NCBI GenBank assembly: GCA_022705945.1
Contig: JAKJDL010000008.1
Location: forward strand, 642-64,641
Source of the DNA: Candidatus Omnitrophota bacterium
Lineage (GTDB): Bacteria; Omnitrophota; Omnitrophia; Omnitrophales; Aquincolibacteriaceae
Reading direction: 5' to 3'
DNA: 64,000 nt
In this document: one piece after another, positions 4,034 through 60,772 of the stretch
Layout: the number at the start of each line of letters is the position of its first letter
Numbering within the stretch: the first letter of the stretch is position 1
Made by a program: the position numbers and the translations under genes
Notes under the pieces: model-generated
What the model was told of the DNA's origin: nothing
Database searches by the model: none
What the model saw: only the letters and a program-made list of their open reading frames with translations

Positions 4034-4090
4034 AAAGCGGGACGCCCGGGCAAGTACCGGGAGAAAAGTCCCGAGTCTCTTTTTTTTAGG
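4034..4090 (+). terminator. Candidate rho-independent terminator after gpmA
   Basis: GC stem cgggac...gtcccg followed by the T-run tctcttttttttt, about 20-70 nt after the gpmA stop. Confidence 0.4.
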
Positions 4091-6441: not shown

Positions 6442-6450
6442 GTTTTGTCC

Positions 6451-9500: not shown

Positions 9501-9504
9501 CTCG

Positions 9505-10164
9505 TCATCCTTTTAAAGCGGTCATGTCATCCACGTTGATACTCTCGAAAGCGCCGCGGATCTTGAAAACAAAGATACCCATGATCAGCCCGGCGACCAG
9601 CACGTCAAAAAAGATCCCTATCTCGACCAGGAGCGGCATGCCAAAGGTCATCGTAACACCCATCAAAAAAAGACCGTTCTCGATCAGGAGCAGGCCGAGG
9701 ACTTGACTGATCGCCTTTTTTCGCGTCGTCATCATCAGCATACCGAAAAAAACGGTCGAGACCGCGAGGGGGATAAACTCGCCCAATGAGACCGGGTTCA
9801 GGATCTTGCCTTCCCTCGTCACATAGAACGAAACAAATACGAGCAGCACGGCCAGAAGGAGCGAGAACGGGATATTGATGTAGCTTTCGATCTCCTTGCG
9901 GATACCGAGCCGCAGAATGATCCGGAAAAAGACGTGCGGGATCACGATTGTTTTCAGAACAAGCGTCAGAACGGCCGAGACCATCAGGTGTTCGACGTGG
10001 TTTGTGGACGCAATCACGGCCGTAATCGCCGCGAGAAAGAACGAGTGGGTCGCATAAGCGCGTATGCACGCCCCGATCTGCGGGGACGCCAGCATCCAAA
10101 AGGAAGCGATCACGAGCATCATGCCGAGAAAATGTGTCAGTGAAACCGCGATGCTGTCGGTCAT
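9505..10164 (-). CDS. Small membrane subunit of hydrogenase-4/FHL-like complex (HyfE-like)
   Basis: 219-aa hydrophobic protein starting MTDSIAVSL. Its ATG at 10162-10164 overlaps the stop of the upstream gene. The longer ORF-track version (to 10905) is a frame artefact overlapping the neighbouring gene. Confidence 0.55.
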   Translation of the reverse strand: MTDSIAVSLTHFLGMMLVIASFWMLASPQIGACIRAYATHSFFLAAITAVIASTNHVEHLMVSAVLTLVLKTIVIPHVFFRIILRLGIRKEIESYINIPFSLLLAVLLVFVSFYVTREGKILNPVSLGEFIPLAVSTVFFGMLMMTTRKKAISQVLGLLLIENGLFLMGVTMTFGMPLLVEIGIFFDVLVAGLIMGIFVFKIRGAFESINVDDMTALKG

Positions 10165-11111
10165 AGCCCCCTCCCGATGATTAATTGCCCCAGAAGTGAA
10201 AGGATCGCCAGAACAAATGCGACGGCAAGCAGGTCCGGGGCCCTGAAAAGGCGCAATTTCGAAGAGTGGATCTCGATCCAGCCGACTACAAAGGCCAGAA
10301 TAAAAATTTTCGCGAGAAAGAAGACCAGCGAAAATCCAAGGGCCGGAAAATCCCCGGCCGCCGCAATCCCCCAGGGAAAGAAAAGATCCGCCAAAAGCGT
10401 CAGGAACACGAGCTGCTTGATCTGATGGCTCCATTCGATCAGGGCCAGGTAGCGGCCGGAATATTCGAGGATCATGGCTTCGTGAATCATGGTTAGCTCG
10501 AGGTGCGTGGCCGGATTGTCCAGGGGGATCCGTCCGCTTTCCGTAATCGTAACGATCAGGAGCGCACCGAAAGCGAGACTCGTGAAGAAAAGGACCTGCA
10601 TCGGAGGTTCGGAAGCAAAATACACAGACATGCTTTCCAGAGACAGTGTCCGGGCGCGAAAACTCAGGGCGAAAAATGCCAGCAGGAGCGCCGGTTCCGC
10701 GAGCGACGAAAGCGTCATCTCGCGGCTCGAACCCATGCCGCCGAATGTCGTTCCCGTGTCCAGAGCCGCGAGAGCCAGAAAAAACCGCCCCAGCGCCAGA
10801 AGATAAACAAAAAGGATCACATCTCCCGTAAAACCGAAGAGGGACCGCGTCCAGAGGACGGGAACCATCGATGCCGCCGCAAGAGTCGACGCGAAAAGGA
10901 CCCACGGCATCGCGTGGAAAATCCAGGATGCCGTTTCCGGGATCACCATGTCTTTGCGGAACAATTTCCAGAGGTCCGCATAGGCCTGGATGAGGCTGGG
11001 TCCCACACGGTTCTGGGAAGCCGCTTTCATTTTTTTGATGAACCAGCTCACGGCAGGCGCGAGCGCCATGAGAAAAAAGACCTGAAAAAGGGACAAAAGA
11101 ACGGCGCTCAT
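10161..11111 (-). CDS. NuoH/HycD-like membrane subunit
   Basis: 317-aa polytopic protein with a NuoH/HycD-like pattern (PLDNPATHLELTMIHEAMILEYSGRY). True start MSAVLLSLFQ at 11111 overlaps the upstream stop (ATGA). Confidence 0.7.
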   Translation of the reverse strand: MSAVLLSLFQVFFLMALAPAVSWFIKKMKAASQNRVGPSLIQAYADLWKLFRKDMVIPETASWIFHAMPWVLFASTLAAASMVPVLWTRSLFGFTGDVILFVYLLALGRFFLALAALDTGTTFGGMGSSREMTLSSLAEPALLLAFFALSFRARTLSLESMSVYFASEPPMQVLFFTSLAFGALLIVTITESGRIPLDNPATHLELTMIHEAMILEYSGRYLALIEWSHQIKQLVFLTLLADLFFPWGIAAAGDFPALGFSLVFFLAKIFILAFVVGWIEIHSSKLRLFRAPDLLAVAFVLAILSLLGQLIIGRGL

Positions 11112-39304: not shown

Positions 39305-42300
39305 TTATGCCGATCGCGCCGTCGCGAGATACCCGGCCTGCATCCGCTCAACGAGCTGGCTCACGCCGGCCACGCGTAGAAAGCTCGCGAACTTTTGAGG
39401 CGTCATGACCGAAATGTCGGAAAGCCGTTTCACCAGTTCTTCGGGAAGCGTTTCGGCACCCCACACCATCGCCCTGAGATTCAATTCGCGGCCGCGGGCT
39501 TCCCTGCCCAGGAGTTTTCTCGCATCATCCAAGTGATCGGCCTGAAGAAGGAGGGGCCGGTTGGCTGGGGAGAGCTGGGCAAGAAAGCCGCGATCCGCTG
39601 AGCTGAGTTCGCTCTCGCTCGCGAGCACAATGATCCGCGTGCCGCTGAAGACTTTCTGGACCGCCAGAAGCGCCTTCTGATCGAACGCGAAAGATTTTGT
39701 AAGAATGAGGGCATCCATCCCTTCGACCGTCCTGAAAGCTATTTTGCGGGCATCGGCATAACGTTTTTCTTCCGGTTCCGTCACGGGAGCCGCAAGCACG
39801 TCATCCGGTGTCTCCGCGGCCTGCGCGACAGGAACCACCGCATTCACGATGAGCTTGACAGCGTTCGCGCCAAACGCATAAGGCACGAGCGACACGATGC
39901 CATCCGTAAGTTTTTCCGTGACGCCGAGGAAACCCCGCAGAGTTCCGCCGCCGAGACGGATATTCTCCGGAATGAACGTCTCCGGATCCGCAAAAACCAG
40001 CCGTGTCTGACCCGGCTCTGCCTGCGAGCGCGTCTCGGACCGGACAGGAACTGCGGATTTCTGCCGATACCGTGTTGGTTTGCCGGAAACCGGAACCGGG
40101 CGGTCAAAAGTCGCACTGTCGCCAAGGGCCATCTGAAAGTCTTTTTGAAATTTGTTCAAAGCTTTTTTCAGGCTCCCCCATGTGACCGGGTCTTTGGGAA
40201 GATTCTCCGGAATCCGGACTATCTCCTTGTAAAACCCGCGGAGGACTTTCACGGCGTCGGATTCGCGGCCATAGTTCAGAGAAGCCGACGTTACCATCGG
40301 AACAAAAACATCCCCGCACAACATGAAAAGATCTCGAAGCATGTTCGGGTCAAGCTTCCCAAACTCCTTCCATCCCGATTCCTCCATCTCAAGCAATTCA
40401 CGGTAGTCCGCACCGGCCAGCGCGCGCGGATAATCGCGCGGCAGTCGCGGATAATCCCTCGATGCTTCCTGATTCAGATAATAAAGTTTCCCGAAAAAGC
40501 CCCGGATCAGCCGACGGGACGGGTCATTCATCCCGGGATACCGGCTTTCCATTGTGTCGGTGAGAAGCCGGACAATAAAATGCACCCCCGGTGCGAGATT
40601 TTCCTCCGGCACCGGCTGGGAATAGAAGGAGCGGCCCCAAAAACCCTTTTCCGCAAGCGCTTTAAGATTCGCCTGGGAAATGTTGCCTTTGTTCTTCGCG
40701 TTTCTAGAGCCCCGTAAAACAAACGGCGCGGTTCGCCCCGGCAAGGCCTCGGAAATACTCTCTTCCAATCGGCCCCGCAAAGTTTCATCGACCGGGAGCG
40801 TCTCACCGGAAACAGTCGCGGAGGCGGAAACCTCTGCCGTTGCGGACGCTTCTTCCGGAACGATAGGGGCAGAAAGACCGACCGCCCCGCGATCAAGGAT
40901 CCTCAAAACAGAGCCCTCGAAATCCCAGAAACCGAGCGTCTTGCCCCAGGCAAGAAGGTGGACGGCCATGTCCTTCGGAATCCCGTAACGGGACGCATTC
41001 AGACGAAGGTCTTCCGCTATATCGGGAGGAACTTCTCCCTCCCAGGAGGAGACCCAACTCCGAACCGCTTTCGTGATGAACGGCTGTTGTTCCCGAATAT
41101 AATCCGCCCTGAAACTAACCGTGAGCAATGCGTTCCGGAACGGCACCCGGATTTGCGTATGCTCAAACCGGACACCGTTCTTCATTGTCAGAATAGACTG
41201 GGCATAAATCTGATTGAACATTTTCCTTGTTTGTTCGACAGATAGCTGTTCCCGGCCCGATCGCGCTTCCGCGCGTAGTGGGACAGCCGCAACGTTTGGC
41301 ACAACAATCGGCGTTTCGGCCACATCTGCTGCCGACGCGATAGCCGCATCCGATATCTCAACAGCCCCCGCACGAAGCTCCGAACGGTTCACTCCCACCG
41401 GCACCATCTGAAGGACCTGAAACCGCCATCCCGGCTGCCGGATCCCCGCCGGATCCTTACGTCTGACCACGGGTATCCCCGTTCTCCAGCCTTCTTTGAG
41501 AAGCGCGGAAAGCGTATGTTTCTTTTCGTAGACTTGCCCCAGAATAAGATCGCGAGCCTGATAGATCATCTCCGGCAAGAGACCCAGCGTTGAGATACTG
41601 CCGATCCCGAACCAAACCTTCCCCTCATCCTTATTGTAAGGAGTTTTCGCAAAATGGATCGGGATTACGACATGACGTTTTTGTTCGAGTCCGCCGGTTT
41701 CTTCTTTAAGCGTCCTGGAGATCACAATGGCCGTACCACGGCTGGCATCGTTGAAAAAAACCTCTCCTCTTTCAAAAAGATCTTTCACTGCCGGATCCCG
41801 CATGACGCTCTTGAGGGCCCGGTAAACCTCCCGGGATTCTTCCTCCGGCCCTTCCCAGTCTTTCATGTCTTCGAGAAGTTCCGGTACAAGCGCCGAGATA
41901 AAGGCCATCACGGGACGAACACCTTCCGCGCCGAAAAGCTCTATCGCCGTATCCCGTCCGATCCCGGAAACAGCCTGGAGATGCGTTTTGAGCTCTTCCG
42001 GTCCCCGGTGCTGGTAATAGGTCACCATTTTCTTCAGCCAATAGACCCTCGGCTTTTGCTGGCGCAATTGCTCTCCCGGTTCGCCGGAAACAAGCGCGCG
42101 AAGATCGTCCAGGATGAGAGATGCCAACTGCTTCCTTTTTTCTTCCGGTTTCATCTCGCCCGCGGCCCGGAGTTTCAGGATCTGAATATCGGGAGACGGC
42201 ACCCCGACCGGCAGAGTTCCCTGCGCGAGCATCCAGAAGGGATAAGGCTTCCGGTCCTCGCCCATCCCGTAGACCTCTCCCGTGATCGCATTGAGGACCT

Positions 42301-45300
42301 GATAGGTCATCGTCGCCGATTCCGGATCGGTCTGGCCCGTAAGCCATTCGAACTCTTTCTGCCCGTAAAATTGTCCCCAGGCCTTTGACTCGCCTCCGTC
42401 AATGCCGGGATATTTCGGTTCGCCCAGATTCAGCGCAACGATATACCTGTCCGCGCCTTCCTGAACGGCAAACCCCGCCAGGCTTTTATTCATGGAACCG
42501 AACCGCCGTCCGTTGGTTTCAAGATAGAAGAAGAGGTTCTGCCGAAACAGGTCGTTCTTGAAAAGCGATTCATACTCTTTGCTGCGGGAATGAATATACC
42601 CCTTCAGGACATTCCCCGATAACGTGACAACAAAGCTGTCCAGGAGCCGGAGCGCCGCAAGGTTGGCTTTCACTTTTTCCAGAAGATCCGTAGCAGCCTC
42701 CGCCCGGGACTTCAGGCGGAGCATTTCCTTATAAAGATCCGGTATCTCTCTCTCGAATCCCTCGAGATAACGGAATATCCTGGCGAAGATATCCTCCTTG
42801 CCGGCGTGATACGCCACCGAACGGTAACCGTCCGCGGCATGAGTTCGTATTCGGCGCGCGCTTTCAACAAAGGCGAGCGGTCCCGGGGGAGCGATCTCAA
42901 GCGCGTTGGGAGATTCATTTCTCCAGACGAATCCGGTATCATCGCCCGCTCTTTGGGAAAGAAACCTCAGAGCGCTTTCGGGAGAAAGCCCCGGCTTTTC
43001 CAGCAGGGCTTTTTCCTCTCCGGATTTTACGACTGTCCTCTGCCAAAGTTTTATGTGCGCCCGCGCCTGGCTTTTTTCCATATCCGCGACGGGAGAGGAC
43101 CGGAGAGCTTTCCATATGAGATCCCGACGCGACGAAGATAACCGGTAGCGTTCCCGGAGTTCGGCAAGGGCACCGGCCAGAGAATCCGCGGACGGCGGAC
43201 GCGCGTTCACGGTCTGAATCTTTCCGTCCACAACGGTATTGAGAACGAACTTGCCGTCGCCCGCCGCGGCGTATTCCACCAGAAAACCATTGGTGATCTT
43301 CCAGGCGCCGGCGTGAAGTTTTCCGGCAAGCTCCTCATAGGTAACATGCTCTTTGAAGATATTCACTTCGCGGCCGGTCGCAGATTCTGTGATTGTGAAC
43401 AGTTCCGGCTCCGCGCCGCCCCAAACGCCGATCAGGGCCGCGCCATTCGGAAGCCCCTTCATCATGCTGGTGGCCGAAGCTTCCAGGATTTCATAAGAAA
43501 GCATTACGCTCGCGGAGATCCCCTGGAAAATAACCGGCGCGACTTCAATGTTGTAGTTCTCGATCGTCGCAAATTTATCTTCAAGGCCAAGCTCCCGCAC
43601 CAAATCCTGGATCTCCAGAAACAAGCCGTGCGCATCTTTGCCGAACTCGCGCCCGCCTATGACCGCCCGGGCAGCGTTCTTCTTGTACCATTCCAGCCTT
43701 GCCGGGTCAGCCTTGAGCGCCCGGAGAACCTCGATCCATTTGTCCGGTCCCTTGTAGGAAACCTGGCGTCGCACGTTGGAAACGATCGGAGTCTTGAGAA
43801 ATTCCCGGCTAAGCGCCTGAACCCTGCGATCCGCCAAAAGCGCGGCCCATTCGTTTTCATTTTCAAGCGCGCCCCGGATACGGCGGTTGAGATCCGCCAG
43901 AAGCCGGTCGCCATAAACCTCCGTGAGCCCGAACTCTTCCCGATACGCTTTCATTGCCTGATCGAACCATGCGGGACGGTTTTGACTTTCTTTAAGCCAC
44001 AGCATCAACCGACCGGTCAAAAAGGCTTTAATGACCTCTGTTCTCTCCTTAAATTCACTCAGAAGAAGTGCCTGGGCAGGTTCGCTGAGCTTCGCAAAGA
44101 GGACCCTGTCATCCGATGCGGGGTCCATCCCGAGCTTCTTTTTATAGCTGTCGGTCAATCCCCGAAGGAGCGGTGACTGCCACTGTTCGAGCAGGACCCC
44201 GTTCGTGCTCCGGAGCCCGTCCTCGTTGTAGCTGTCCACCACATCGGCATAGCCGGGCATCACGCCGCCCGTGACGGCAGGCGTGTGTTCATACAAGGCG
44301 ACCCCGGTAACAAGGTCAAATGTCATCCCCGCCGCATCCGTGACACTGATCTTTCCGTTCCGGACGATATAGGGCCGCAGTGCCCTAGAATATCCCAGCA
44401 CCTCCAGAGAAGCCTCTTCAGGCTGATAGATCGTCGGCGTGAAGACAGAGTGGTTTATGTGATGGTGAAGCGCGTCCGGCAGAAGAGGCGTCGGCAAGCT
44501 GACAAAAACCTCATTGTCCACAAAGAGAATCTTCTTCTTGGCCACTCCTTGCTCCTGAAGTTTCAACGTCAGAAGCTCGGTAACTTTCCGGTAAACCCCC
44601 ATTTGCAGGTCGCGCCAAAGATTGGGGGCTCCATAAGGAGCATCGGGATAAACCTCGTCGAAGATCTGGACCTTCTTTCCATAATCATCAATGTAAAAAG
44701 CCTCGATATAAAAATTCGGCATACCCCCGACCGAAGTCTCGGTCGGATAAACCTTGACCCTGATCTCGCGGTCAACCGCTTCCCGGGCTTGCTGGAGTCG
44801 TTTCCTGTATAAAGCATCGCCGGTCCGGCTGATCCACTCGTCGGCTTTCGTGCGAAACTCATCGCCGGCATCCAGAGAGAAACTCAGCCGAAATCCCGGA
44901 TCTTCGGTCAGAACTTCGCGAAGATAATCCCCCAGCGTCTTTTTGCCGCTCACCACCTCTTCCGGAAGGTCTTTGGCGTAAGCCTGCCCCTTGATCTCGT
45001 CATAGATCACGTTCACGGCAAAGACATCTATGTTCTTTTTTTTCGGAGCTCCAAAATTCTTTTGCCAGGAGGGGAAAAGATCGTGCATCAGGGCTCCTAG
45101 GCCTCCGGTCATCGTAGTGGCCGCGACCAGTCCCGCGATCTCTTCGCCGAACTTCGCTTTAAGCTTTTCCAAAATATCACGCGACAACCCGGCCTCAAGC
45201 TGGCGGGAAATGACAGTATAATTCCCAAGTTCCGGGGCATTCTTCGTCGCCCAGGAGCGCATCTCGGAGCGGGAAGATCTTGAAAAAGCGACGGCGAGTA

Positions 45301-48300
45301 CAGCGGCTCCGCCGACAGGTCCGGAAAAATCGGCGAATCCCATCACCGGTGAGGCATGTTTTTTCATCAAGCCGTCCCGCCTGCTCGGCGCGTATCCCTT
45401 GTCAATCCCCGCTTCGCGGACCTCCGACCGGCCCAGGGCCGATAGGGCGCTTTCGATACGCACTAACCGGGGTTCTTCTTTCCGGGCCTTTTCAAGCTGT
45501 TCCAGAAGATAGCGCCGGGTCTCTTCATCGATCTTGGCGAGCGATCTTAAATGCTTTGTGAGTAACGCCCTGACCAAAGACTCTCTCCGTGAGGACCGGA
45601 TGGCCCGAACAACATGGTCGACCGCTTCCCTGGCAGTATAGCCGGCTTTCATCAGCTCATCCGCGGGATCTTTTTGCTTCCGTGCCCTGTGGATCGCGGA
45701 AGCCACTTCCAGGGTCCGGATCTCGGGGACCGGCTCCTCGCCAAGGACATTCATCCATCCGCTCATGTACCGGTTGCGCGCCACATCGATCCATCGCGCG
45801 TCCTGCGTCAACAGCTGATATTGCACTTCCCGCCACGCGGGACGGTCATACCGGTAAACGTCATACATTTTCATTAGCGAACTCAACCAGTAAACGGGGT
45901 TAAAAACCTTGAACCCTTCCGTCAGTTCCCCGCGGGTGACCAGCTTGTCCGCCAGTCCATCCACGTCCCGGAGATGACGCATGATCCCGTTGGCCGCAGC
46001 CTCTTTATCGCTAAGACCGCACGGTTCAAAGGTAGACGGCATATCGAACAGGTCCGAACCGCCATAGATCAAATCGTACATTTCCTCGGTCGTTTTGATG
46101 AAACTCGGCCGGAAATAAACCCGTCCGGAGAAAAGGGACGCAATTTCATTAAATCCTTTTTCGTAGCTGGAGCCCTTTTCCACGCTCCCGGCCACCACAA
46201 ACCGCACATCCGGATGAAGAATGAGCATCACGTCCAGGGCTCTCAAAGCCTCCATCCCGTGCTCTTTGGCAAATTCCCTGAGCGTCCGGGCCTGGGCTTC
46301 CGTCAGCTGGATCCGCACATCCGGATCCGCAAAAAGGTTCCGCATCGGAACCGCCTGCTCGTTGATATTGCCGGACAAACGGAACGGAGGATGCTGCGGG
46401 TTGAGACGCAGACCGTTTGGATCCCTGACCGTCCAGACTTCGGCAAGGAGCAGGTGATGTCCCTTTTGCATGTCGATCCGGTGGAGCATGGAATGCACAA
46501 AAACACGGTCCGGGTCCCCCGCCAGACCTGTCTTCTCCAGCAAAACGCGCCGGGCGACCGGCTGAAGATAATCCAGGACCACTTTCGCGAGCATCCGGCG
46601 ATCACGCTCGTGACCGATCTCCATGAAACTTTTGACAAATCTCGAGGGGTTCCTGACCACCTTCCCAAGATATTCCCGGAACCCTTCCATGCCCGGCTCC
46701 CAGTCCGGGTTTTTCAGATCTGATCGCATTTTTTCAAGCACTCGGGCATCATGAAACCAGCGGTGCAGGAAATCCCTCTGCTGGGTAACAACCTCGATAC
46801 CGTTCGGAATTCCGGTATATCGCCCAAGGCTGTCCTTGTATTGAAGCTCACCGGTCAATCCTCCGAATTCGTTCCAGTAATCATTGTCCAGGCTACGGTC
46901 GTGATACCCTTTCGATACCGTTACGGCCAGGTCCGATGTCTTGAGCGCCGTGAAGCTCGGATTGATGATTCCCCAAATCCCCGGAGCGAAAAGGACATCC
47001 CAGTCTTCCTGTGCGCTTAGTCCGAGGTCATGATAGACCATGGCATTACGCCGGCGTGTTTGTTCGTCGGTAAGGTGTTTTGTCTTCCAATCGTTGCTGA
47101 TATAAACCCAACCCTGATAATCCCGGTGAAGGTTATGGAATATCGAGGTAACGCGGGTTCGGCGAAAGTGCGGGTCCCGCTTCAGGTCTTTCAGCGCGGG
47201 AGCAATGCGGTCCCGGCCTTCCAGGTAAGCTTTCAGGTAGGCCGACGGCCAGTCATTGGTCTGGATGACATCAGGGTGGATGTTCGCCTCGCGAAGAGCA
47301 AGAAGAGCTCCGAGCGAAAGCGCCCTGGCGAATCGAAGCTTGAAGTTGTCCGCCCCGTGATACCCGCTGGGGTCTCCGGACCATCTGCCTCGCAGTCTCG
47401 GAAAAACCGTGTCGTTCATCAGCCCAAGGACCCGGACCCCCCTGATCTTGGTCTTGAAAATCATCAGGTCCTCGTACTGAACGGTTCCGCCGTTATCATA
47501 CGGAACCGGCGCCACGCGCCCTGTGTCTCTGAACCCGTATTGCTTAATCACATCCGCTTTGTTGTGGGAATAGATCGGGGCAACCAGCGTGACATTTACG
47601 CCAAGATGGGCCAACGTCAACGCCAGCTCCGAAACGGCCTTGGCCAGCCCGCCCGTTCCTTCGGTCCACAGGCTTTCGGGACTCACGAGCACCACTTCGC
47701 CGACGGAAGAACTCTGAAGAACCTTGATGGCATCTTCGCTCATTGCGGGATCGCTTTCCTGGTCTTCGACCGCCATACTGACGAGGAACTCACGGATCTC
47801 GTCCTTAAGCTCCGGTTTCAGAACCATAACGTCCCGGAAAACCATCGCGAGGTTCCCCAGATCCAGCCGGCCGCCCGAGGCGCGGATAATCCCGGAAAAT
47901 AACCGGAAAAGCGTCTTGAACTCACGATAACCGCTTTCAAACGCCCTGACGATCTCCCCGGAGACAAAACTATACCTGAACCTGTCCTCAACGCCGTAGC
48001 GGCGGTAGCGCTGAAGCGAATCCTTCAGAAGTTCACGGTAACCGGGCTCACCGGCAAGAGGTAATTTTCCCGAGATTTTCCGAAGGTGATAGATTTTTAT
48101 TTTACCGGACCGGAGAGGATCACGCGGGCCCAGCCCCAAATGCCGCATGGCATTCCCGGTCAGGATCAAAGGTTCCCCCGGATTGCGTACATTTACAGAA
48201 ATGTCCTCACTGTCATGGACCTTGATGAACTCAAACACATCTTCGGGCTGAACTAACAGGATTTTTTCTTTTTCCCCGAAAACCCGTTCCGGAATAAAGT

Positions 48301-51300: not shown

Positions 51301-54300
51301 CGCTGGGATACTGATCATAATCGCGTGAATGGTTGAGGCGAAGCGTTTTTTTCTTTTCTCTCAAAAGGAGACTCAGCTGGAAGATCAGATCCAGGTTGGC
51401 GGTCAGGTCCCCCTGCTCCAGAATCCACCGGATCGCCGCAAATGCATCGCCCCAGGTCTTGATTCCCCGAATGTCCGGCATATCTTCCCGCGCTTCCGAG
51501 CGGATAGCCGCACCGCCGTGTGAAACGGTTTTGAGGAATTCGCCGAGAGGCATCCCGGATTCCAGGGAAAGGTTTTCCGGGAGAGCGGCGCCGGTCGCTC
51601 TCGAGATCCATCCGGCAAAAACCCTTTGGATTATAATTTTTTTCCCGGGGTGAAAACCTCCTGGCCCGGACAGCTTCCCGAGAATGTTGATCAATTGCAG
51701 GGCTGCCTTTTTCTGTTTTACGGCGTCTTGAAAAATCTCCCGGGGCGTCTCGACAAGAAGCCAGCCTTCCGGTTTGTGCGCATCTCCGCCTCCCATCGCG
51801 AAAAGGATACCGGCCTCGTGCTCTTTCTTGTCCGCTTCCGCATAATTTGCCTTCCGGGCATGAATCAGACCCGGCTTTATTTCAATACCGGACTCATCGT
51901 GAGCATGCGTGTACGTGGAAAAGCCCGCTCCCCTGAGAAGAAGGATGCTCAAGGGATTGGCTTGAAGATGCATCCTGTTCGCCCCATCCATCCGGACGCT
52001 GAAGCTGACGCTCCTGTTTTCCTCTTGCTCTTCGGCCGAAAGGGCCCTATCCGTATTCAGCTCGATCATGGCCTGCACGGGAGTTATCGTGCCCAGGCGT
52101 TTCTTAATGCGTCTCAAGATCTCCTGGCTGATTCTGAGCTGGATACTGCGGTCAAATTTATAAGGATCAATCCACTGATACCGGACAAACTCATGAAATG
52201 TTTTCCCCGCCGGCGGCTCGCTATCGGTCCCCGTAACCTCATTTGTCCCGGCATAGAAACAGAGCATCTTCCAGGCCATGAGCGCTTCGTCCGAAGAAGG
52301 ATCATCCTTGGCGATCTCAAAATAGACCCGCACGATCTCCTGCATATGTTTTTCGAGCTCCGCCTGGCCGCAGATCAAAAACTCCGTCCCTTTCTCTTCA
52401 GAAAGCTGAAACCCTTTTTCTTTTAGATAGGTAACGGCGATCCTGCGCCCTAAAAGCTCGCGAAGATTTTGAAGGTCCTTCGAGAGGCGTCTCTTCTCAT
52501 AACCCGGATCGTCCGTCAAATATTTCAACCGGAAATACATATCGATCTCGGCACCCGTCAACGACCGGACCATCCAGCGGTTGTCTTTTATCGTAACGGC
52601 TCCATGTCTGTCGTTAGAGCGGATCGATTTCATCGTTTTTTCCGAGGACGTTCCCGGGGCAAGAAGCCACTGATAAAATTTTTCGCGAGTTTCGGAACGC
52701 CGTGCTGAACTATATGGCAAAGACTCTGCCGCCGCGGAGACAAAAGCTCCGGAGGCGAAAGCCCGGACCTCGGAACGCCCTGATATCTTTTTACACATTT
52801 CAATAAGCGCTGTCGTCGACTGGTCATGACCGGTGACCTCGGCACCGGCCGGAAGCTGGGGAAGGATATTTTTGGCAAGCAATTTCCCTAGCTGAACACC
52901 CCACTGATCAAAGCTATAGACATTCCAGATCACCCCCTGGACGAAGATCTTGTGCTCATACATCGCAATAAGAGCGCCAAGAACCCTCGGCGTCAACTTC
53001 CTAAAAAGGAAAGTATTGGTGGGATGATTCCCTTCAAAGACTTTATGCGGAGCAAGCTTTTTAGCTTCTTCCGGCGTTTTTCCGTCACGAAGAAGCTGCT
53101 GATACGCCTCCTCGCGGGTCTGGCCCGACATGAGAGCCTCGGTTTGGGCGATGGCATTCGCGATTAATTTATCCTGGTGATCTCCCAACGGATAATGGCT
53201 TGAAGCCGCCAGCAAAAAGTCCGCCGGGATCAGCTTGGTCCCCTGGTGGATCAACTGGAAGAAAGCGTGCTGCCCGTTGGTGCCGGGCTCCCCCCAGATA
53301 ACAGGGCCCGTTTGCCAGCGCACGCGCTTGCCGTCCCGGGTAACGGTCTTGCCGTTGCTTTCCATATCCGCTTGCTGCAGATAGGCTGGAAGACGACGGA
53401 GCGACTGGCTGTAAGGAAGTATCGCGTAGGTTTGGGCGCCAAAAAAATTGTTGTACCAGATCCCGAAAAGCGCCAATAGCACGGGGAGATTTTCTTTCAA
53501 AGGCGCCTTCCGGAAATGTTCATCCATGTCATAGGCGCCCCGGAGAAGCTCCTCGTAATTATCATATCCGATGAAACAGGCAACCGACAATCCGACGGCA
53601 GACCAGAGAGAATAACGCCCGCCGACATAATCCCAGAAGCGGAACATGTTCCGGGTATCGATCCCGAAACCCGTGACCCTTTCTTCCGACGTTGAAACCG
53701 CCACAAAATGCCTCGCGACAAACGAGGGATCCCCGGCTTTTTCCAGAAACCACTCCTTCGCGGTCGCGGCATTCGTAAGGGTTTCCTGGGTGTCGAATTG
53801 TTTCGAGGCGATAATGAAAAGCGTCGTTTCGGGATCAAGCCCTTCCAGCGTCTCCGCAATATGCGTTCCGTCCACGTTCGAAACGAAATGCACGCGAAGA
53901 TCTGGACGCGCCTGGTAGGGCTTGAGAGCTTCCGCCGCCATCATCGGCCCGAGGTCCGAGCCTCCGATCCCTATATTCACGATATCCGTGATGGGCTTGC
54001 CCGTGTACCCCTTCCACCGGCCGGAAATGATCTTCTCGGAAAAATCCTTCATCTGCCTCCGGACTTTCCGGATCTCCGGCATCACATCACGGCCGTCCAG
54101 CATCACAGGCCGGTCTGAAAAGTTCCGGAGCGCGGTGTGAAGCACGGCCCGCCCTTCGGTCCCGTTGATCCTCGCGCCTTCAAACATCATCCGGATCGCA
54201 CGCGGCACTTCCGTTTCCTCCGCAAGCCGAAGAAACTCCTCAACAACATTGTCCGTCAAGCGGTTCTTTGAAAGATCGGCAATGATTTCTTCGCCGTTTC

Positions 54301-57300
54301 CGAGAACGACCTCATGCGTATATTTTTCCGCCCGGCGGGGATCAAGGGAAAAGATGTTTCTCAGATGCAGCTTGCGAACATCCCTGAAAATTTTCTTGAG
54401 CGACCTCCAGGCTTCCGTTTCGGTCGGATCATAACTCGGGAACACCTCGCCTGAAGAAAAATCCTTCTTTCCCGCGGGAATCTCGGAACGGGCTTCGGAG
54501 CGGGCCGCCGAAGATGCTTCAAGTTCATTCTCAAGCAGAGCGGTATCATTCCAGCGAAACGCTCTTCCGTTGATCACGATTTCGCGTTTTCCCTGAGACC
54601 TTGCCTTGACATTGCTTGTGGCGAGACCTTCCAGAAGCTCGCCCCGGCTTGTCGCAAAGAAATTCTTTCCGTCGATCATGACACCGATCTTTCGCGCGTT
54701 CACTTTCCAAACGATCACTTTGCGTGTCTCGGAGCGGGAAACAACAAGATCCGGGAACCATGCGTGGAATTCACCTTCCGTATATTCCCCGGCGGGGTCC
54801 CTGGCCCAAACATCCATATCTTCCGGCGCGGTTAAATGGATGAAATTTCTTCGCACATCAAGTCGTCGCCCTGTCAGACCGAGCGCGGGATCATTCCGGA
54901 AAGCGCGGGCACGCAAACTGTCGGGGTGCTTTACTGCAGCGTCTTTCGGGTCCGTTTCACCTGCAAATTCATCCTTCATCTGCTGGAGCGTAGACGCATC
55001 CGCCGCAAAAGGGTCCTTCTTGAGCCAGATCGCAATGGTAGGCGTTTCGGCCCCGGTAAAATCTTCGGCAAGTGCGGGAAAAAATGCGTTGTAAGCGGGG
55101 ACTGTTTTTCCGCGATAGGCTACCGGAATATAGTCTTCGTCAGGCAAAGAGAGAAGCCCGATGCGAAAAGCCCTGGGACCCTTTCCAAGCTTTTTGACCT
55201 TGCTCATTCCAAAAGGCGCATCCCAAATACTTGCCAGATGTTCCGGCGACAAGCCTGTTTTTTCCATAAGTTCGTTCGCCGAAAACGCAAGCTGGTCCCC
55301 GGGAACAATTTCTTTTGAAAAATCAAGAACCGCCAGATGCTCTTTGACCGCAGTCCGCTCCTCGTCGTTCAAGGCCTTGTCTCCCAGGGTGGCGACTGCC
55401 GCGTGACGAGAATAATGTTCCCCGAGAACATCTTCCCCGCGAATAGTCCCGGCATCCACCACGCGAACGGCATTGGCGAAATAACCGCGTTTTCCGGCCG
55501 CGCCGAGAACCTCGACGATCGTTTTTTCCGTGATCGTCCCGACAGAAGGCTTAATCAAAAGCACGAGGCTGTCTTTCATATCAGGGTCCTGAAGGCGACG
55601 GCCATTCCCGAAATCCACATAGCCGGTCGTTCCCTCCTTATACAATGCGAACGCTTCAGCTGCGATCTTCTCGGCTGTTCGCATTTCGGAACGGTGCTTT
55701 CCGGTCATTATCTGAAACACCGCCAGCCGGGCATTTGGAATATCAAGAGGTAAAACCCGCTTCTTCCCGGACATCCGGGAACTCATTCCGCTTACGGTAA
55801 CCCCCAAGACTCCCGCGCCCGCGCTTCTCAGTTTGTTCAAAAATTCCGGGATTTTCCGGCCCGAACGGGTTTCCGAGCCGGCAGCCGCAGTATCCGTTCT
55901 TGTTTCCGAACGCGCCCAGTCGGTCAGAATGGAACTTAACGCCTTGACATGATCCCCCGTCACAACATAAGACAAACCGCCGCCGTGGGGATTGATCGTC
56001 GCCATCATCGGTTTTTCAAAAACCCCGGCAATCACGCCGTCTGCTTTCATTTGATCCAGAACGTCTTTAGACTTCACCGCACTCTGAGAGTTCGTCCAAA
56101 AAACCACCGGAGTCTGAAACCCGTTCCGGTCAAGCGCCCGCCACATGCTCTCATGCCACCGCGCTTGATCACGACGTCCCGCATAGTCATCAAAACCGGC
56201 CAGAACCAGGTCGAAGGGACGGCTCGCCAGCGCCAGCCAGAGATCTTCCCGCTGAAAAGAAAGGTCGATCGTTTCAATCGTCGCGGCCGGGCTGATAGCC
56301 TGGGCCAGCTGGCGAAGCGACGTTGCGCCGGCTTTTGTATCCGCAACAAGAATTCTTTTGATCCACGGGAACGCATCCATCGAAAGCGGTGTTATATTTT
56401 TCGCCTCCTCTTTTCCTTTTTCGGAAGCCGAGCTGTCACCGCCCTCGCGCGCTTCACTGCGGGTGAGGCCGGTGTCCGGAATGATTTCGATCCATTCAAC
56501 GTTACTGATATCCGGGATCCTCGCTTGCCGGCTCAGCTCATCCACGGTCACAAAACCAAGAACTTCCTTATAAGCTCCTACTGTGATCTGATAAGTGATC
56601 TCCCGGTGCCGAGGACGCACCAGGACAAGGGTCCCATGAAGCGCTTCCTCAGTAACGCCTTGCGCCTTGAGGAAATCCGAGATTTTTCCGCGGCTATCTC
56701 CGATCAACTCTTTCGAAAAGCGCCGTGTCGGAACTTCCGGACGACCTTGTCCGGTCCTGAAGATCTCATCCTCTCCCCTTGTTTCCGAGCGGACAACCGG
56801 AGCTTTTATTCTGGTCAAAAAGTCCTGTGCGGAAAAAAGCCCGTTGGCGCCCTTGCGGCCTCCGGACACAAGCGGCTCCGACAGGAACCGTCCCGCGGTT
56901 TTTCTCACTCCTTGATCCGGATGATTCCTCGCGACGGCTCTGAGCCGGGCACGCACCATTGCCTCGCTTACCTTCTCCCCGCGAACCTCCGAGCGACCGT
57001 CAACCAAACTCCCGCCGTCTCCGCGGCTTAGATCCAAACGCTTCGGACTGCCCGGCGCCCGCAGTGCTTTCCGTGAAGGTCGTGGGGGAGCTTTTTGCCG
57101 AAGTCGAATTTTATCGATTGTCCGCAGCAATTCGCTCCTCTCGGCTTCCGAACCGTTTACTTTTAAAACTTCCCGCTCCGCCGCGTCCAAGGCTTGACGG
57201 ATTCTGGGATCTTCCTGCAGCCCCTCCATTTCGCGGACAACGTCCGTTGCCTCAGACCACTTCCGAGCACCTGCCTGCCTGTCAAGCGCCTTGACCAGCC

Positions 57301-60300
57301 TGGGTATTTCGATGCGGTCTCTGAAAAAACCCCCGACAGAAGCGGGCATTCTGTTGCGGGAAAACTGAACGGAAAACAAAATGAGGGCTCCTGCGGCCAG
57401 GAATCCGGCCCAGCGGAGTCTCCGGTTGGGAGCGTCCTTTCGTGACGGGATCCCGCCGAGAATGGCTTCTATGGAATAGACCAGCAGAGGTCCCGTCAAA
57501 GCAAGCATCCATGCACCATCATGATGCATCCCGGCCCTCGAAACATGGGGGCTAAAAAAGACCCTTATCGCAAAGAACACGACGGCGGCAGCGCTATAGG
57601 TCAATCCGAAAAAAGCGCTGATCCCTATCACCGGATCCCTCTCTTCCGGCTGCTCGTCCGGAACGGGCGGCATGTCCGGCCATTGAATGACGGGCGCGGC
57701 TTCTTTCCGGGCTTTCAACAGATCGGCAAGAATCCAGGGGGTCATTATCGGCGAAAAAAGAATCCCTATCATCTTCAAAAATCCGGGGACAAACAAAGCG
57801 CTCAAAAAAACAATCCCCGCACTGAAAAAATAGGCTCTTAGCACATTCACGACAAAGGGGTACTGCGAGGCATACCAGGGGAAAAGGAACAAGCCCGCGA
57901 GGCCAAGAAACAGCGCGGCACCTCCCAGATAGGCAATCCCTCCTTCCGTATCCAGCTTTTTCTCCGAGGTCATGAAAAATGACGGCATGAAAAAAAACGC
58001 CAGAAGAACCGCTACGCCGAGAGCAATTCGTTTTTTAAACACTCTGTCCCTCTGGGACGGCGAAGAAGCGGCAACCTCCCGAAGCGTCGGGCCATAATCA
58101 ATGAGACCGCTCCCCAGGAGACCCTGATCGAACAAGGGATCCTTGATCGGGTCCGCATGGCGACGGATAACATTCAAAATTTCCAGGGTTGAAAGATTTG
58201 GATTAAACTCCAGGATCCGCGCGATCATCCCTGCGACCCGGGCCGAAGCAATCGATGTCCCCGCAACCTCAAACGAAGTTACTGAAAAAAAGTTGTTTTC
58301 TTGCAGAAAGTCGCGTCCGGAGGCACAGATATGAACGTGGGACCCGAAATTCGAACGAGCCTCCTTTCCGCGCGGCGTTGCATCGCCGACGCCGATCACG
58401 CCGTCAAACGCCGCCGGGAAATTAGGGTTGCCGTCCGGAATGTTCCCGGCCGCCGCCACCAGGATCGCCCCCGCGTCCGCAAGCCGGCCTATCAAGATCT
58501 TCTCCTCTTCGGTATAAAACTTTCCGCCAAAACTCATGTTCACGACAACGCGTCGGTCAGGATTTGCCTTCATAAAATCCAAAACCGTTCCGAGGGCCTT
58601 GTAATAGCGACCGATGTCGACTTGCCCGGACACCGGGTTGACTACAGCGATTGAAATCACTTCAGCGCTAGGCGTCGATTGCCTGAGCACTTTGGCCACG
58701 ATGCTCCCATGATCCACTCGGGTTTCCTCGTCCCCGCGGACAGGGCCTTCCACAAAAGAGCTTTTTATGCCCGTGTCGAGTACAAAAACAGCAACGAGGT
58801 CCTTCTGCGATGCGGCGACAACCTGCATGGGTAAACCGGTCAACGCCGCAGCCAAGACTACCATTCTGAAAATCCTTAAAAAACTCCCTGACATTTCCGC
58901 AAAGGGCCGGGTTCTTCCGGAACGAGTACGCGTCTCGGCCCGCGAGGCGGTGCCGTCTCCGCCTTTCCAGATGCTACGCTCGACTTCCGGTTGCCGGGCA
59001 GTAGCGGATACGGGAAGGGCGCTCCGCGCGGAAACTAAAAACTGCTGTTGCAGATACCGCTGCCCGACTTCCGCAAGAAATTGCGCGTCGCTTCTAAGGG
59101 GCGGCGCCTGCTGGCTTCGTGCGATATCGCTTCCGAGAAGCACGTTCAGATAGTTTTTCCGGTCATCGATGCCTGCCTTGCCGATCTGCGGCGTGATACC
59201 GATATATGTTGCGCCGGAAGCGGTGATTTTTTCTTTCAAACCGTCCGTGTGAAATCCTCCGGTCACAAGTACCGCTCGCGGTTTTTTTGACGATTTAAGC
59301 CGGGCGAGGGAATTGCGGAACATGATGTCCTCGCGCTCGATAGCAGCCGCATAGAAATCGAGCGCTTTCTGAAAAAGCACCCTGATTTCCCGCGCGGAAC
59401 TCGCCTCCCGGCCGTTGGGCCGGGTCCCGAGTCCCCTGACAAGTTTTTCGGGAGTTATTCCCCGCGATTTGACTTGCTGATATTCTTCCCGGCTCAGTTC
59501 GAGATTAAAAAGTTTCCTCAAAAGCCGGTATTCGCGGAGCGCGGCGGCAAGGCGCTTTTCTTCCGGTGTCACAGCGAGTTTTTCGATGATCAGCTTCGTA
59601 AGCGATTCGATCTCTTTCCGGAGCGCGTCGCCCCCGATCTCCGACATGAGGATGATCTGCTGGATGTACAAGCGGAGGTTCGGATAGGGATCGAACGAGA
59701 AATCGGGCGGAAGGGCGTCGAGCAGGCGCTCGAAAACAAAGCGAGTTTTATAAACCGGGAGATCGTGTTTCGCGGCAGATTCGAAAATTTGCTCAATCTC
59801 TCTCAAAAGGGTCTCGGAACCCGTCGCCCGGGACTCGTTTTGATTTCTCGTTTTTCGATCCCCTGGTTCCGAGGAACTGGTTTCAAGTTTTTGGATAGCA
59901 TTCAAAAATTCCTGTTTCTCCTTCTCAACCTTCGCCGCGTCGATCTTCCCGCCGATCTTTCCCAACCGGAAATAACGGACAAGAACAGGCCAGTCCGTTT
60001 GAGCACGAACGTCCTTGAGATCGACAGGTGCATTTTCATCCGTCGTCCGCCCTCCGTCATTCCATACCGGGTTTTTAAAGGCCGCTGTCTTCAGCACCTC
60101 CAGCCAATCCCCGAGCGGAAGGCGCTCTTCATCGAAATCGGTATAACGGATGAGAAATTCGCGGAGATCTTTATTGAGGGAGATGCCGGCCTGCTTTTGC
60201 CATGCAATGCGTTTGGCGGACAAAAATTTCGAAATTGTTTTGCGGCTCTGATAGACCTTGCGAAATGCGTCGAGACCGGCGCGATACGCTGCGGCTTCTT

Positions 60301-60772
60301 CAACTCCGTAGCCTTTCATGGCGCCGGCCGATTCCATTAAATAAGCTTCCGCTCCGGTAAGTTCGGCAACGCGCAGCAGCCGGTCGTTGATGGTGCGGCG
60401 GAGTTCGGCGTCTCCTCCCGAAAGGTCTATCGAATCGGGACGGAGCTCATAACCTGCGCCCTCCAGATAAACTTCCTTGATATTATAATTTTCACTGAGG
60501 AACCGCAGGATGTCCCTGATGTTCTTCTGGGCATCATAATTGGCGTGAGCTTCCTGGACATGAAGAAGAACCGGAGCGTTCGGACTGCCGAAAATGATCT
60601 CGTGAACTTTGCCTAGCTCGGCCGGAATCTCGAAGTTCTGGACCTGGTTTGCGTGAGCCAGCACTTCCGTCGCGGCATAAGCAAGAGGAGACGGAGTGAG
60701 GGTGTTGGTCGTAAAAAAAGTAACGGCAATCAACCCGGCCAGAAGTCTTTTGATCTTCTTTGAGTAGCTCAT
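39305..60772 (-). CDS. Giant multidomain secreted/membrane polyprotein-like protein (7155 aa): signal peptide, shared N-domain, S8 subtilisin, TM block, receiver-like domain, phosphoglucose isomerase, PPDK-type dikinase module, GT5 glycogen synthase, GT35-like glucan phosphorylase and further unassigned modules
   Basis: Single uninterrupted 21,468-nt ORF. GAGG RBS upstream of the ATG at 60772. Signal peptide [33 protein letters not shown]. Domain motifs are listed in the sub-features below. Confidence 0.85.
43553..45175 (-). other. Alpha-glucan phosphorylase (GT35)-like module, aa about 5200-5740
   Basis: [41 protein letters not shown] resembles the GGLGxLAGD...LxGVGLLY N-terminal block of bacterial/archaeal alpha-glucan phosphorylases. 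Weaker than the other calls. Confidence 0.45.
45923..47701 (-). other. Glycogen/starch synthase (GT5)-like module, aa about 4358-4950
   Basis: [40 protein letters not shown] (the KTGGL-type ADP-glucose motif) ... [10 protein letters not shown] ... [34 protein letters not shown] (the PSRFEPCGL...GGLADTV block). Confidence 0.75.
48638..50110 (-). other. PPDK/PEP-synthase-type nucleotide-binding domain plus phospho-histidine swivel domain, without a PEP/pyruvate TIM barrel (dikinase-like), aa about 3555-4045
   Basis: [25 protein letters not shown]; [25 protein letters not shown]; [31 protein letters not shown] (PPDK_N blocks); then [25 protein letters not shown] (PEP-utilising His domain). No PEP-binding barrel is recognisable afterwards. 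Confidence 0.7.
52853..54400 (-). other. Complete glucose-6-phosphate isomerase (PGI) module, aa about 2125-2640
   Basis: [94 protein letters not shown] and [15 protein letters not shown] are the conserved PGI blocks, in order. Confidence 0.85.
56003..56359 (-). other. CheY-like receiver-type domain (possibly degenerate), aa about 1472-1590
   Basis: [11 protein letters not shown]...[10 protein letters not shown]...[10 protein letters not shown]...GVFEKP mirrors the receiver beta-strand/Asp/Thr/Lys layout. The acidic pocket is partly substituted. Confidence 0.35.
57338..58030 (-). other. Multi-pass transmembrane block (about 6-8 helices), aa about 915-1145
   Basis: Consecutive about 20-aa hydrophobic stretches ([18 protein letters not shown]; [20 protein letters not shown]; [19 protein letters not shown]; [21 protein letters not shown]; [22 protein letters not shown]; [15 protein letters not shown]). 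Confidence 0.65.
58088..58810 (-). other. Subtilisin-like serine protease (peptidase S8) module, aa about 655-895
   Basis: Catalytic-triad motifs in order: Asp in [10 protein letters not shown], His in VDHGSIVA, oxyanion Asn in NMSFGG, and Ser in [11 protein letters not shown]. Confidence 0.8.
59138..60595 (-). other. Shared N-terminal domain (copy 1 of 3), aa about 60-545 of the giant protein
   Basis: [22 protein letters not shown] and [29 protein letters not shown], conserved with the 2359-aa and 729-aa paralogs. Confidence 0.7.

Follow-up and report, generated by a model that had tools for sequence, protein, structure and literature searches.

Recurrent pentapeptides at module junctions of giant Omnitrophota proteins suggest polyproteins that are cut at a short code

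Introduction

Two giant open reading frames (ORFs), coding for proteins of 7155 and 2359 amino acids (aa), were analysed in a 64,000-nucleotide stretch of DNA from a Candidatus Omnitrophota bacterium (positions 642 to 64,641, forward strand, of contig JAKJDL010000008.1, assembly GCA_022705945.1; the whole stretch is called the window below). Both proteins carry the pentapeptide R[SA]ExR repeatedly at the borders between modules. Judged from sequence, the two ORFs are probably polyproteins that are cut at this junction code into proteins of ordinary size.

In the proposed scheme the giant ORF would be translated as one chain consisting of a head (signal peptide and TIKI/EreA/ChaN-like domain), the cargo and a C-terminal module. 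The cargo would comprise glucose-6-phosphate isomerase (PGI), dikinase-like, glycogen-synthase-like and phosphorylase-like proteins, an exported S8 subtilase, PP2C, NUDIX and methyltransferase pieces and many orphan pieces. R-[S>A]-E-[L/V/A/M/S/I/T]-R would be the junction code, cut by a dedicated and highly site-specific endopeptidase, with the scissile bond most likely after the last Arg of the motif. Cutting would take place co- or post-translationally in the cytoplasm of the producing cell. Pieces with twin-arginine translocation (Tat), lipoprotein or Sec signals would be exported singly, and PGI and the glycogen enzymes would stay in the cytoplasm.

Giant ORFs are a signature oddity of the Omnitrophota, and the literature, in its available parts, asks whether their products are single molecules or are cleaved. 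The accessible text of West-Roberts et al. (2023; bioRxiv 10.1101/2023.11.21.568195) describes Omnitrophota giant proteins with GT5, GT1, PGI, PPDK_N and NUDIX domains and an N-terminal S8 or C39 domain. Cleavage of giant proteins is proposed there, the cleavage points are called unknown and the N-terminal regions are generally without identifiable domains. The accessible text of a later preprint (bioRxiv 10.64898/2026.06.07.730766) sets up a class named 'multi-enzyme metabolic cluster' and reads topology with the chain taken as intact; a term search of it gave no occurrence of cleav-, proteoly-, polyprotein or motif. A description of the junction pentapeptide, of the TIKI-like head, of the C-terminal module or of signal peptides after junctions was not found in the accessible text of either paper, and a literature search for the pentapeptides and for Omnitrophota with polyprotein gave no prior description of a junction motif. 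New relative to this literature are the code R[SA]ExR / [AG]xSLG, the TIKI-like head, the tail ending in [SA]A and the post-junction signal peptides, which imply piecewise routing.

The junction motif in the window

Exact enumeration gave 15 copies of RSE[TVAMLI]R in the 7155-aa protein (positions in the list below), against 0.21 expected by composition. In 2000 shuffles of this protein the mean was 0.22 RSExR and the maximum 3. Among its gapped pentamers RSE.R ranks first with 15 copies, and any other occurs at most four times. Two RAExR variants are also in frame, RAETR at aa 611 and RAEAR at aa 6500. The 2359-aa protein (15497..22576, minus strand) contains four RSExR copies (aa 1383, 1627, 1899 and 2100) versus 0.09 expected, with a maximum of 2 in 2000 shuffles, and one in-frame RAEAR (aa 698). 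A six-frame scan of the window found no RSExR in the 26 neighbouring genes (real genes outside the two giant ORFs).

The over-representation had been pointed out in an earlier sequence-only reading of this DNA, as had the four copies in the smaller protein, and both were reproduced by exact counting and the shuffled null. Its tally of at least 18 instances in the larger protein holds for the 15 RSExR copies and RAETR-611; GSETR (which really lies at aa 1632) and RSEIP (aa 2096) are off the family consensus.

The codons of the motif vary: Ser is TCG, TCC, AGT or AGC, Glu is GAA or GAG and the last Arg is CGN or AGR. As both Ser and both Arg codon families are used, conservation is at the level of the peptide and not of the DNA, in agreement with what had been read from a few examples. 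A DNA repeat as the source of the motif was ruled out by the mixed Ser and Arg codon families together with the absence of internal repeats on self-BLAST. A Shine–Dalgarno-like reading, prompted by TCGGAGGT within RSEVR, was also ruled out, since other variants are without that sequence.

The features of the larger ORF are given below in window coordinates, all on the minus strand (-), with residue numbers of the 7155-aa protein.

39305..60772 (-), giant ORF, 7155 aa, which reads as about 18 pieces divided by 17 R[SA]ExR junctions
60674..60772 (-), Sec-type signal peptide, aa 1-33, then Ala (read from sequence)
59093..60673 (-), N-terminal domain, aa ~34-560, TIKI/EreA/ChaN-like alpha/beta hydrolase fold
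58928..58942 (-), first junction, RAETR, aa 611-615, in frame and adjoining the end of the N-terminal domain
56996..58927 (-), piece 2, aa 616-1259, with a signal-peptide-like start, S8 subtilase and about seven transmembrane (TM) helices (aa 911-1138)
56981..56995 (-), junction RSEVR, aa 1260
56777..56791 (-), junction RSETR, aa 1328
56447..56461 (-), junction RSEAR, aa 1438
55898..55912 (-), junction RSETR, aa 1621
55679..55693 (-), junction RSEMR, aa 1694
54722..54736 (-), junction RSETR, aa 2013
54488..54502 (-), junction RSEAR, aa 2091, close upstream of PGI
52778..54487 (-), PGI piece, aa 2096-2665, complete glucose-6-phosphate isomerase (Pfam/NCBIfam)
52763..52777 (-), junction RSEVR, aa 2666, beginning four residues past the end of the PGI profile
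52685..52699 (-), junction RSETR, aa 2692
51488..51502 (-), junction RSEAR, aa 3091, which aligns with RSEMR of relative P0002 before a conserved block
48512..51487 (-), dikinase-like piece, aa 3096-4087, PPDK_N and PEP-utilizers mobile domain (Pfam/NCBIfam)
48497..48511 (-), junction RSEVR, aa 4088; RSEMR and RSEVR occur in relatives P0001 and P0002 within this variable linker that follows the dikinase domain
45431..48496 (-), glycogen/starch synthase-like piece (GT5 and GT1), aa 4093-5114 (Pfam/NCBIfam)
45416..45430 (-), junction RSEVR, aa 5115
45257..45271 (-), junction RSEMR, aa 5168
41387..45256 (-), piece aa 5173-6462, with weak alpha-glucan phosphorylase (GT35) matches below curated cut-offs
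41372..41386 (-), junction RSELR, aa 6463
41261..41275 (-), in-frame variant of the junction, RAEAR, aa 6500
40028..40042 (-), junction RSETR, aa 6911
39308..40027 (-), conserved C-terminal module, aa 6916-7155, ending ARSA

The motifs were mapped onto the domain matches, and their placement at module junctions, also claimed earlier, was borne out. The clearest case is PGI: the Pfam PGI profile is matched end to end (1-486 of 486, 1.9e-222) and NCBIfam PRK00179 is matched over 5-541 of 544 on aa 2115-2662, with motifs on either side at aa 2091 and 2666. The S8 match covers aa ~687-900, the PPDK_N and mobile-domain matches aa ~3551-4043 and the GT5/GT1 matches aa ~4360-5013. Motifs follow the dikinase module (4088) and the synthase module (5115 and 5168) and stand around the phosphorylase-like module (6463 and 6911).

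The embedded PGI has about 60% identity with bacterial PGIs that are encoded on their own. Searching genome contigs with the PGI module returned free-standing PGIs only (at about 60% identity), with no fusion and no motif among them. Two pieces are very short, with 21 aa between RSEVR-2666 and RSETR-2692 (52700-52762, -) and 32 aa between RSELR-6463 and RAEAR-6500 (41276-41371, -). Spacers comparable to those of retroviral Gag are one possibility, small peptides that are set free another.

The head of the giant ORF recurs in two further proteins of the window, listed here with the junctions of the first of them.

15497..22576 (-), second polyprotein, 2359 aa, with signal peptide and N-terminal domain (aa ~18-559) and NUDIX-like, methyltransferase-like and PP2C pieces, ending SSAA
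20471..20485 (-), in-frame variant of the junction, RAEAR, aa 698
18416..18430 (-), junction RSELR, aa 1383
17684..17698 (-), junction RSELR, aa 1627
16868..16882 (-), junction RSEIR, aa 1899, after PP2C (aa 1662-1840)
16265..16279 (-), junction RSETR, aa 2100
61262..63451 (+), third member of the family, 729 aa, divergently oriented to the giant gene, with signal peptide, N-terminal domain and a C-terminal part of about 250 aa ending ERAA

The two giant ORFs have only the N-terminal region of about 550 aa in common (28% identity, E 1.5e-49), so that the term paralog, previously applied to the whole 2359-aa protein, is right for this domain and not for the rest of the chain. As listed, the 2359-aa ORF starts with TTG (22561-22576, -). 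With an ATG five codons on (MLINKGAAYIWLRVV...) the N-terminus is a more typical signal peptide, and translation more likely starts there; the residue numbers used here count the five extra residues of the TTG start. The 729-aa protein is collinear with the N-terminal domain of the giant ORF (BLASTP E 2e-13) and keeps IQDVHAH, LEGA and VTGGFHTEGL. It has no junction motif and no cargo, and its GenBank name is hypothetical protein. It may be the ancestral cargo-less form of the family, or a trans-acting copy.

Conservation of the motif and architecture of the family

An exhaustive protein search with aa 1-1200 of the giant ORF as query brought up 658 cluster representatives at a threshold of E <= 1e-30, and the best 150 of these were analysed (mutually <50% identical, 426,298 aa in all). 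They were matched at their own N-termini and are 0.5-7.5 kaa (thousand amino acids) long. Every relative that has a name is from Candidatus Omnitrophota and is annotated by whichever enzyme is embedded in it. Word-indexed protein searches were sparse, with one match for aa 1201-2100, four for aa 3096-5200 and seven for the N-terminal domain.

The 150 relatives contain 673 RSExR versus 10.1 expected (68-fold) and 201 RAExR versus 14.5 (14-fold). RSExR is the most enriched gapped pentamer in the set and ranks above the invariant motifs of the N-terminal domain. Positions 1 and 5 are strictly Arg (Lys is enriched only 1.5-2.7-fold) and position 3 is Glu (Asp is not enriched); position 2 is Ser or, less often, Ala, and position 4 is Leu, Val, Ala, Met, Ser, Ile or Thr. 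Upstream flanks are rich in Ser, Ala, Pro and Thr. Downstream, Ser, Thr or Ala is followed by acidic residues, and the flanks are poor in aromatic residues. This composition around a strict core points to a recognition site in a flexible linker. P0132 apparently has R-x-E-M-R, and P0125 has RSEQR.

The first motif lies at aa 500-720 in 105 of the 127 members with complete N-termini; the median, aa 616, is directly after the N-terminal domain. In P0061 the GDH and PGM modules are wholly inside pieces delimited by motifs. When P0001 and P0002 are compared with the dikinase region of the giant ORF, motifs recur in the same variable linkers, the flanks of which have diverged. Pieces have a median length of 211 aa (5-95% range 22-951 aa), and about 10% of the family's pieces are shorter than 50 aa.

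Comparison of 984 pieces all-against-all showed that, besides the N-terminal domain, the only widely shared piece is a C-terminal module of about 230 aa. It occurs as type C1 in 35 proteins and as type C2 in 41 and is always terminal; aa 6916-7155 of the giant ORF are of type C1. The chain ends in -SA or -AA in 91 of 154 family proteins, including all three members in the window (ARSA, SSAA and ERAA). Family proteins without such an end are mostly apparent truncations at contig ends. The -SA and -AA ends are reminiscent of the C-terminal tails that ClpXP, Tsp or PDZ proteases recognise. The module has no conserved polar residue, and a fold search with it gave only generic Rossmann-like matches. 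The design of the family is a head, a junction, cargo pieces each with a junction, and a tail, and the cargo looks to have been inserted into a head-plus-tail gene.

Some relatives are 6-7 kaa long, for example P0007 (HNX67865.1) and P0032 (MBN1688305.1). The public names of polyproteins of this size follow one enzyme, such as 'UTP--glucose-1-phosphate uridylyltransferase' or 'dihydrodipicolinate synthase family protein'. Because of naming by one embedded enzyme, pathway surveys of the Omnitrophota may mis-score enzymes that are hidden in giant ORFs. PGI is given for only 67 of 176 genomes in the accessible text of the 2026 preprint (bioRxiv 10.64898/2026.06.07.730766).

Targeting signals after the junctions

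Cleavage at the motif would free the N-terminus of each piece, so that pieces with signals could be exported alone. Internal targeting signals were found to cluster directly after the junctions. Seven of ten Tat-like signals lie within 35 aa after a junction, versus 7.3% expected (p=1e-6), as do four of eight lipobox signals (p=0.002). For the first TM segment, a distance of at most 20 aa from a junction was seen in 26% of cases, versus 7% under a positional null. Among the Tat examples, AASLG is followed by MDRRTFVKTCMAGLGALAAGAG (MDRRTFVK...) and then by a NAGPA domain, which is of an extracytoplasmic type. Others are AASLG followed by MDRRDFIKLAGAAAGLALAA (MDRRDFIK...), RSEVR followed by AIDRRAFLGAAAGAAALLGLG (AIDRRAFLG...), and QRRQFLKRAAVTAVGLG and SRRSFLSGVGAWALSG. 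Lipobox cysteines after junctions occur in GLVGC, SMAGC, GLVGC and GLVSC, and ordinary Sec signals are also present. Behind RAETR-611 of the 7155-aa protein comes a signal-peptide-like segment, with a cut predicted before AS, and then the S8 piece with its approximately seven TM helices. Predictors of whole-protein topology would take this internal signal peptide for a TM helix, which would flip the predicted side of everything downstream.

To our knowledge, Tat and lipoprotein signal peptides work only at free N-termini. Tat and Lol/Sec targeting begin in the cytoplasm. The simplest reading of Tat, lipoprotein and Sec signals directly after the motif is therefore that the chain is cleaved at the motif, and in the cytoplasm. 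If the signal peptides belong to single pieces, the occurrence of cytosolic-type enzymes inside proteins predicted to be secreted or membrane-bound would also be explained.

The same signals bear on an explanation without cutting, in which the motif is a linker element (for partner docking, as a hinge or for a modification such as Ser phosphorylation) and the giant proteins work intact. We regard it as improbable; a phosphorylation or docking role, which the sequence-only reading had offered as its second choice, is kept as a minority alternative. A PP2C module in the 2359-aa protein would suit such a role, and proteomics has caught peptides of the giant ORF of another Omnitrophota bacterium, with processing not reported. 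A cut after a motif that ends in Arg gives the same peptides as trypsin, so that such processing would inevitably have been invisible to the bottom-up proteomics published for giant proteins of the Omnitrophota. Tat and lipoprotein signals directly after the motif argue against an uncut linker, and so does a second junction sequence described in the next section. The 201 copies of RAExR, with Ala at position 2, show that Ser is not essential.

Cysteine makes up 0.1-0.2% of the giant proteins, about ten times less than the 1.0% of the 26 neighbouring genes, and 0-0.35% across the 150 relatives. A good share of the few cysteines of the relatives are in lipoboxes shortly after junctions. Depletion within the PGI module was not demonstrable (two Cys versus a mean of 2.4), PGIs being Cys-poor anyway; a Cys that is present in 20 of 24 homologues is Ala in the module.

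An alternative junction sequence

Seven relatives with no RSExR at all (P0133, P0082, P0145, P0111, P0068, P0118 and P0139) carry 4-17 copies of [AG]xSLG instead. The first copy was located at aa 527-607 in the five that were checked (P0133, P0082, P0145, P0068 and P0118). Since this uncharged sequence holds the same positions as R[SA]ExR, it argues against a charge-based role of the junction motif or a phosphorylation site, and with it against the uncut linker.

The 4546-aa P0082 of assembly GCA_029261035.1 and an adjacent 2626-aa paralog (L084:10001-23641 and L084:923-8803, respectively) are both of the [AG]xSLG type, and neither has RSExR. In the genome of the window the two paralogs, with N-terminal domains only 28% identical, both use RSExR. 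As paralogs share one motif type in both comparable genomes, the type looks like a property of the genome, which is as expected if one genome-encoded reader recognises the motif.

Two unrelated motifs in different lineages also bear on co-translational skipping of a peptide bond at the motif, as at viral 2A StopGo elements, which would need no protease. A short, strict sequence at junctions would be compatible with it. Known 2A elements depend on about 18 conserved residues, with Pro where the skip occurs, whereas only five residues are conserved here, and we know of no function of 2A elements on bacterial ribosomes. We give this mechanism hardly any weight.

The N-terminal domain and candidate enzymes

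All relatives have an N-terminal domain of about 550 aa that matches no Pfam or NCBIfam family, and in nearly all of them it stands behind a signal peptide. Fold comparison gave a parallel beta-sheet core as in Ere, ChaN, HopBA1, TraB and RRSP, the fold of the TIKI superfamily, with a helical insertion of about 340 aa between core strands. The superfamily, known as TIKI/EreA/ChaN/TraB-PrgY-GumN, is that of Sanchez-Pulido & Ponting (2013), as reported in the accessible text of PMC6254334. The domain differs from it in that insertion and in having no sequence-profile match to it: nothing in Pfam/NCBIfam was matched at E<=1 (TraB_PrgY_gumN, Erythro_esteras and Cofac_haem_bdg included), and no PDB entry was matched by sequence or profile.

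The conserved residues are H71, H76, E104, E158, R266, E387, R480 and T504-G-G-F-H508 (7155-aa numbering). H76 and E104, spaced 28 residues from each other, show 98-99% conservation, and H508 is in the invariant TGGFH. The catalytic His-Glu pairs of Bcr135 (H85/E113) and RRSP (H3902/E3930) are also 28 residues apart (PMC6254334); H76, E104 and H508 were matched to the catalytic residues of the superfamily by spacing and strand position only. RRSP is a case of a TIKI-type fold acting as a sequence-specific endopeptidase (PMC6254334).

The domain could thus itself be the junction endopeptidase, a leader protease that folds first and cuts R[SA]ExR in cis or in trans, with the 729-aa copy as the trans version. 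It is the sole enzyme-like module common to all members, its fold superfamily includes the site-specific endopeptidases RRSP and Tiki (PMC6254334), His, Glu and GxxH are kept at apparent superfamily positions and the first junction adjoins the end of the domain. The domain is the foremost candidate for cutting in cis, but we consider this assignment doubtful. The near-universal Sec signal predicts export of the domain, whereas Tat and lipoprotein signals after the junctions imply cutting in the cytoplasm. There is almost no covariation between the sequence of the domain and the motif type, and within one genome the same motif serves paralogs that are 28% identical. Many of the superfamily's members act as esterases or binding proteins, and a Pfam or PDB match at the level of sequence is lacking. 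A trans-acting cytoplasmic protease other than the head is at least as likely to be the reader of the junctions.

The S8 subtilase embedded in piece 2 had been put forward as the processing enzyme, which would cut its own polyprotein at RSExR as a kexin-like, Arg-directed convertase; in the literature, too, the cutting of giant proteins has been ascribed speculatively to N-terminal S8 or C39 domains. The triad is indeed complete, with D666 (DTG), H688 (HGS) and S840 (GTSIA) in a Pfam Peptidase_S8 match of 5.9e-16. A homologous S8 is found in only three of 152 motif-bearing relatives, however, and not in the 2359-aa paralog, and the S8 piece, with its own signal peptide and then about seven TM helices, is probably extracytoplasmic. 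Nor is the motif of the kexin/furin type. It has Arg at P5 and P1, the positions between them are taken by Ser, Glu and a hydrophobic residue, it is neither dibasic nor RxxR, and Lys is poorly tolerated. Autoprocessing by the S8 domain is very improbable on these grounds. Given its own signal peptide after RAETR-611, its TM helices and its rarity in the family, the subtilase is probably exported cargo. The earlier proposal of a processing signal in a polyprotein keeps strong, if indirect, comparative support (enrichment, placement at domain boundaries, the alternative motif and the targeting signals that follow) and loses S8 as its enzyme.

Several observations weigh against polyproteins that are cut in the cytoplasm. 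A Sec-type N-terminus (Lys or Arg and a hydrophobic core) is present in 87 of 93 complete relatives and is ill-suited to a cytoplasmic protease. Gene fusion might in principle have left the signal peptides after junctions behind as fossils; they have an intact appearance, and the lipobox Cys is kept in proteins of about 0.1% Cys. This very low share of Cys would itself agree better with export of the entire chain than with residence in the cytoplasm. Some of the 150 relatives have few recognisable motifs or none. Finally, a single column of the N-terminal domain (aa 484, Met versus Phe) separates the RSExR-type from the [AG]xSLG-type proteins, and the domains of the [AG]xSLG type do not form a single cluster; for these two reasons the N-terminal domain is not an obvious determinant of specificity.

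Comparison with known systems

The proteins resemble the Omnitrophota giant multi-enzyme ORFs of the literature: they come from the same phylum, contain GT5, GT1, PGI, PPDK_N, NUDIX and an N-terminal S8, and have TM helices and a signal peptide. They are smaller (2-7.5 kaa) than those giants of the literature that reach 30 kaa or more. The 7155-aa ORF lies above the threshold of about 7000 aa for multi-enzyme giants and has membrane-targeting elements; the 2359-aa ORF lies below that size.

MARTX proteins (multifunctional-autoprocessing repeats-in-toxin) are also giant bacterial arrays of unrelated enzyme modules with linkers that are cut site-specifically, and their effector RRSP shares the TIKI-type fold of the head. 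In MARTX an internal cysteine protease domain (CPD) cuts after Leu, export is by type I secretion, RTX repeats are present and the cargo is toxic. The proteins described here differ, as whole-protein Pfam/NCBIfam scans found no RTX, Peptidase_C80 or family related to the type I secretion system (T1SS), and the cargo is of housekeeping type together with exported proteins that bear signals.

By analogy, the chain might be a secreted effector array, exported to a host or prey in which the TIKI/RRSP-like head cuts it, the enzymes reprogram host metabolism and host machinery routes the signal-bearing pieces. In its favour are the N-terminal signal peptide of nearly all members, a Cys content about ten-fold depleted relative to the neighbours, as expected for proteins translocated unfolded, the predators and epibionts among the Omnitrophota and the host-acting effectors HopBA1 and RRSP among the fold neighbours. 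Against it stand the housekeeping-type cargo (PGI about 60% identical to ordinary PGIs, and relatives with GDH, PGM, DHDPS and UGPase), the absence of RTX repeats, CPD or T1SS features in Pfam and the absence of an encoded delivery apparatus from the window. We judge such an array to be quite improbable.

Viral polyproteins (those processed by picornavirus 3C and potyvirus NIa-Pro, and those of alphaviruses and flaviviruses) are similar in encoding many proteins per ORF, with short, strict sites in flexible linkers. Their sites have four or five fixed residues, internal signals become functional after cleavage, and site and protease co-evolve by lineage. The family described here likewise has several complete proteins in one ORF, with PGI present end to end, GDH, PGM, DHDPS and UGPase in relatives, and pieces with targeting signals of their own. 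It is unlike the viral cases in its location on a cellular chromosome, with several polyprotein genes per genome, housekeeping cargo and conserved head and tail modules.

The plastid polyproteins of Euglena and dinoflagellates (LHCP and the RuBisCO small subunit) are nuclear-encoded, and their conserved decapeptide linkers are removed by a specific protease. They share with the proteins in question a cellular origin and mature proteins joined by a short conserved linker. They differ in being eukaryotic tandem copies of one protein, processed after import into the organelle.

Site-specifically processed polyproteins are therefore known from viruses, MARTX and some eukaryotic precursors, and chromosomal polyproteins with housekeeping-type cargo across a bacterial phylum would be new. 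We know of no earlier case of a cellular prokaryote that uses polyprotein processing as a general strategy of gene expression. That the Omnitrophota as a whole phylum express a sizeable part of their proteome, housekeeping and exported, as virus-like polyproteins with a genome-specific code and with cargo inserted between the halves of an ancestral gene is proposed tentatively, with somewhat less than even confidence. If polyprotein processing is correct, the Omnitrophota giants would be cut-up equivalents of operons and not giant machines, and their topologies and the assignment of enzymes as extracellular would need reinterpretation piece by piece. The junction code makes the question of single or cleaved molecules testable and predicts the exact mature products. 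It supplies a rule for re-annotation of the more than 650 cluster representatives with the same head domain, and the junction peptide is a substrate with which a new site-specific protease could be found, possibly a tool enzyme like TEV.

Other genes of the window

The remaining genes of the window are those of an ordinary chromosome and include a membrane-bound hydrogenase-like cluster, transketolase, DHFR, thymidylate synthase, SOD and others. The cluster (5545-13138, -) encodes subunits that resemble those of complex I and of [NiFe]-hydrogenases: a NuoB-like protein that contains ferredoxin domains, a large subunit made of a 30-kDa/49-kDa fusion, a NuoH-like protein and two antiporter-like subunits. 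It looks like a membrane-bound hydrogenase of the Ech/Mbh type and is unrelated to the junction motif. Proteins of neighbouring genes in the window are identical to GenBank entries of Candidatus Omnitrophica bacterium ADurb.Bin277 (GCA_002069035.1).

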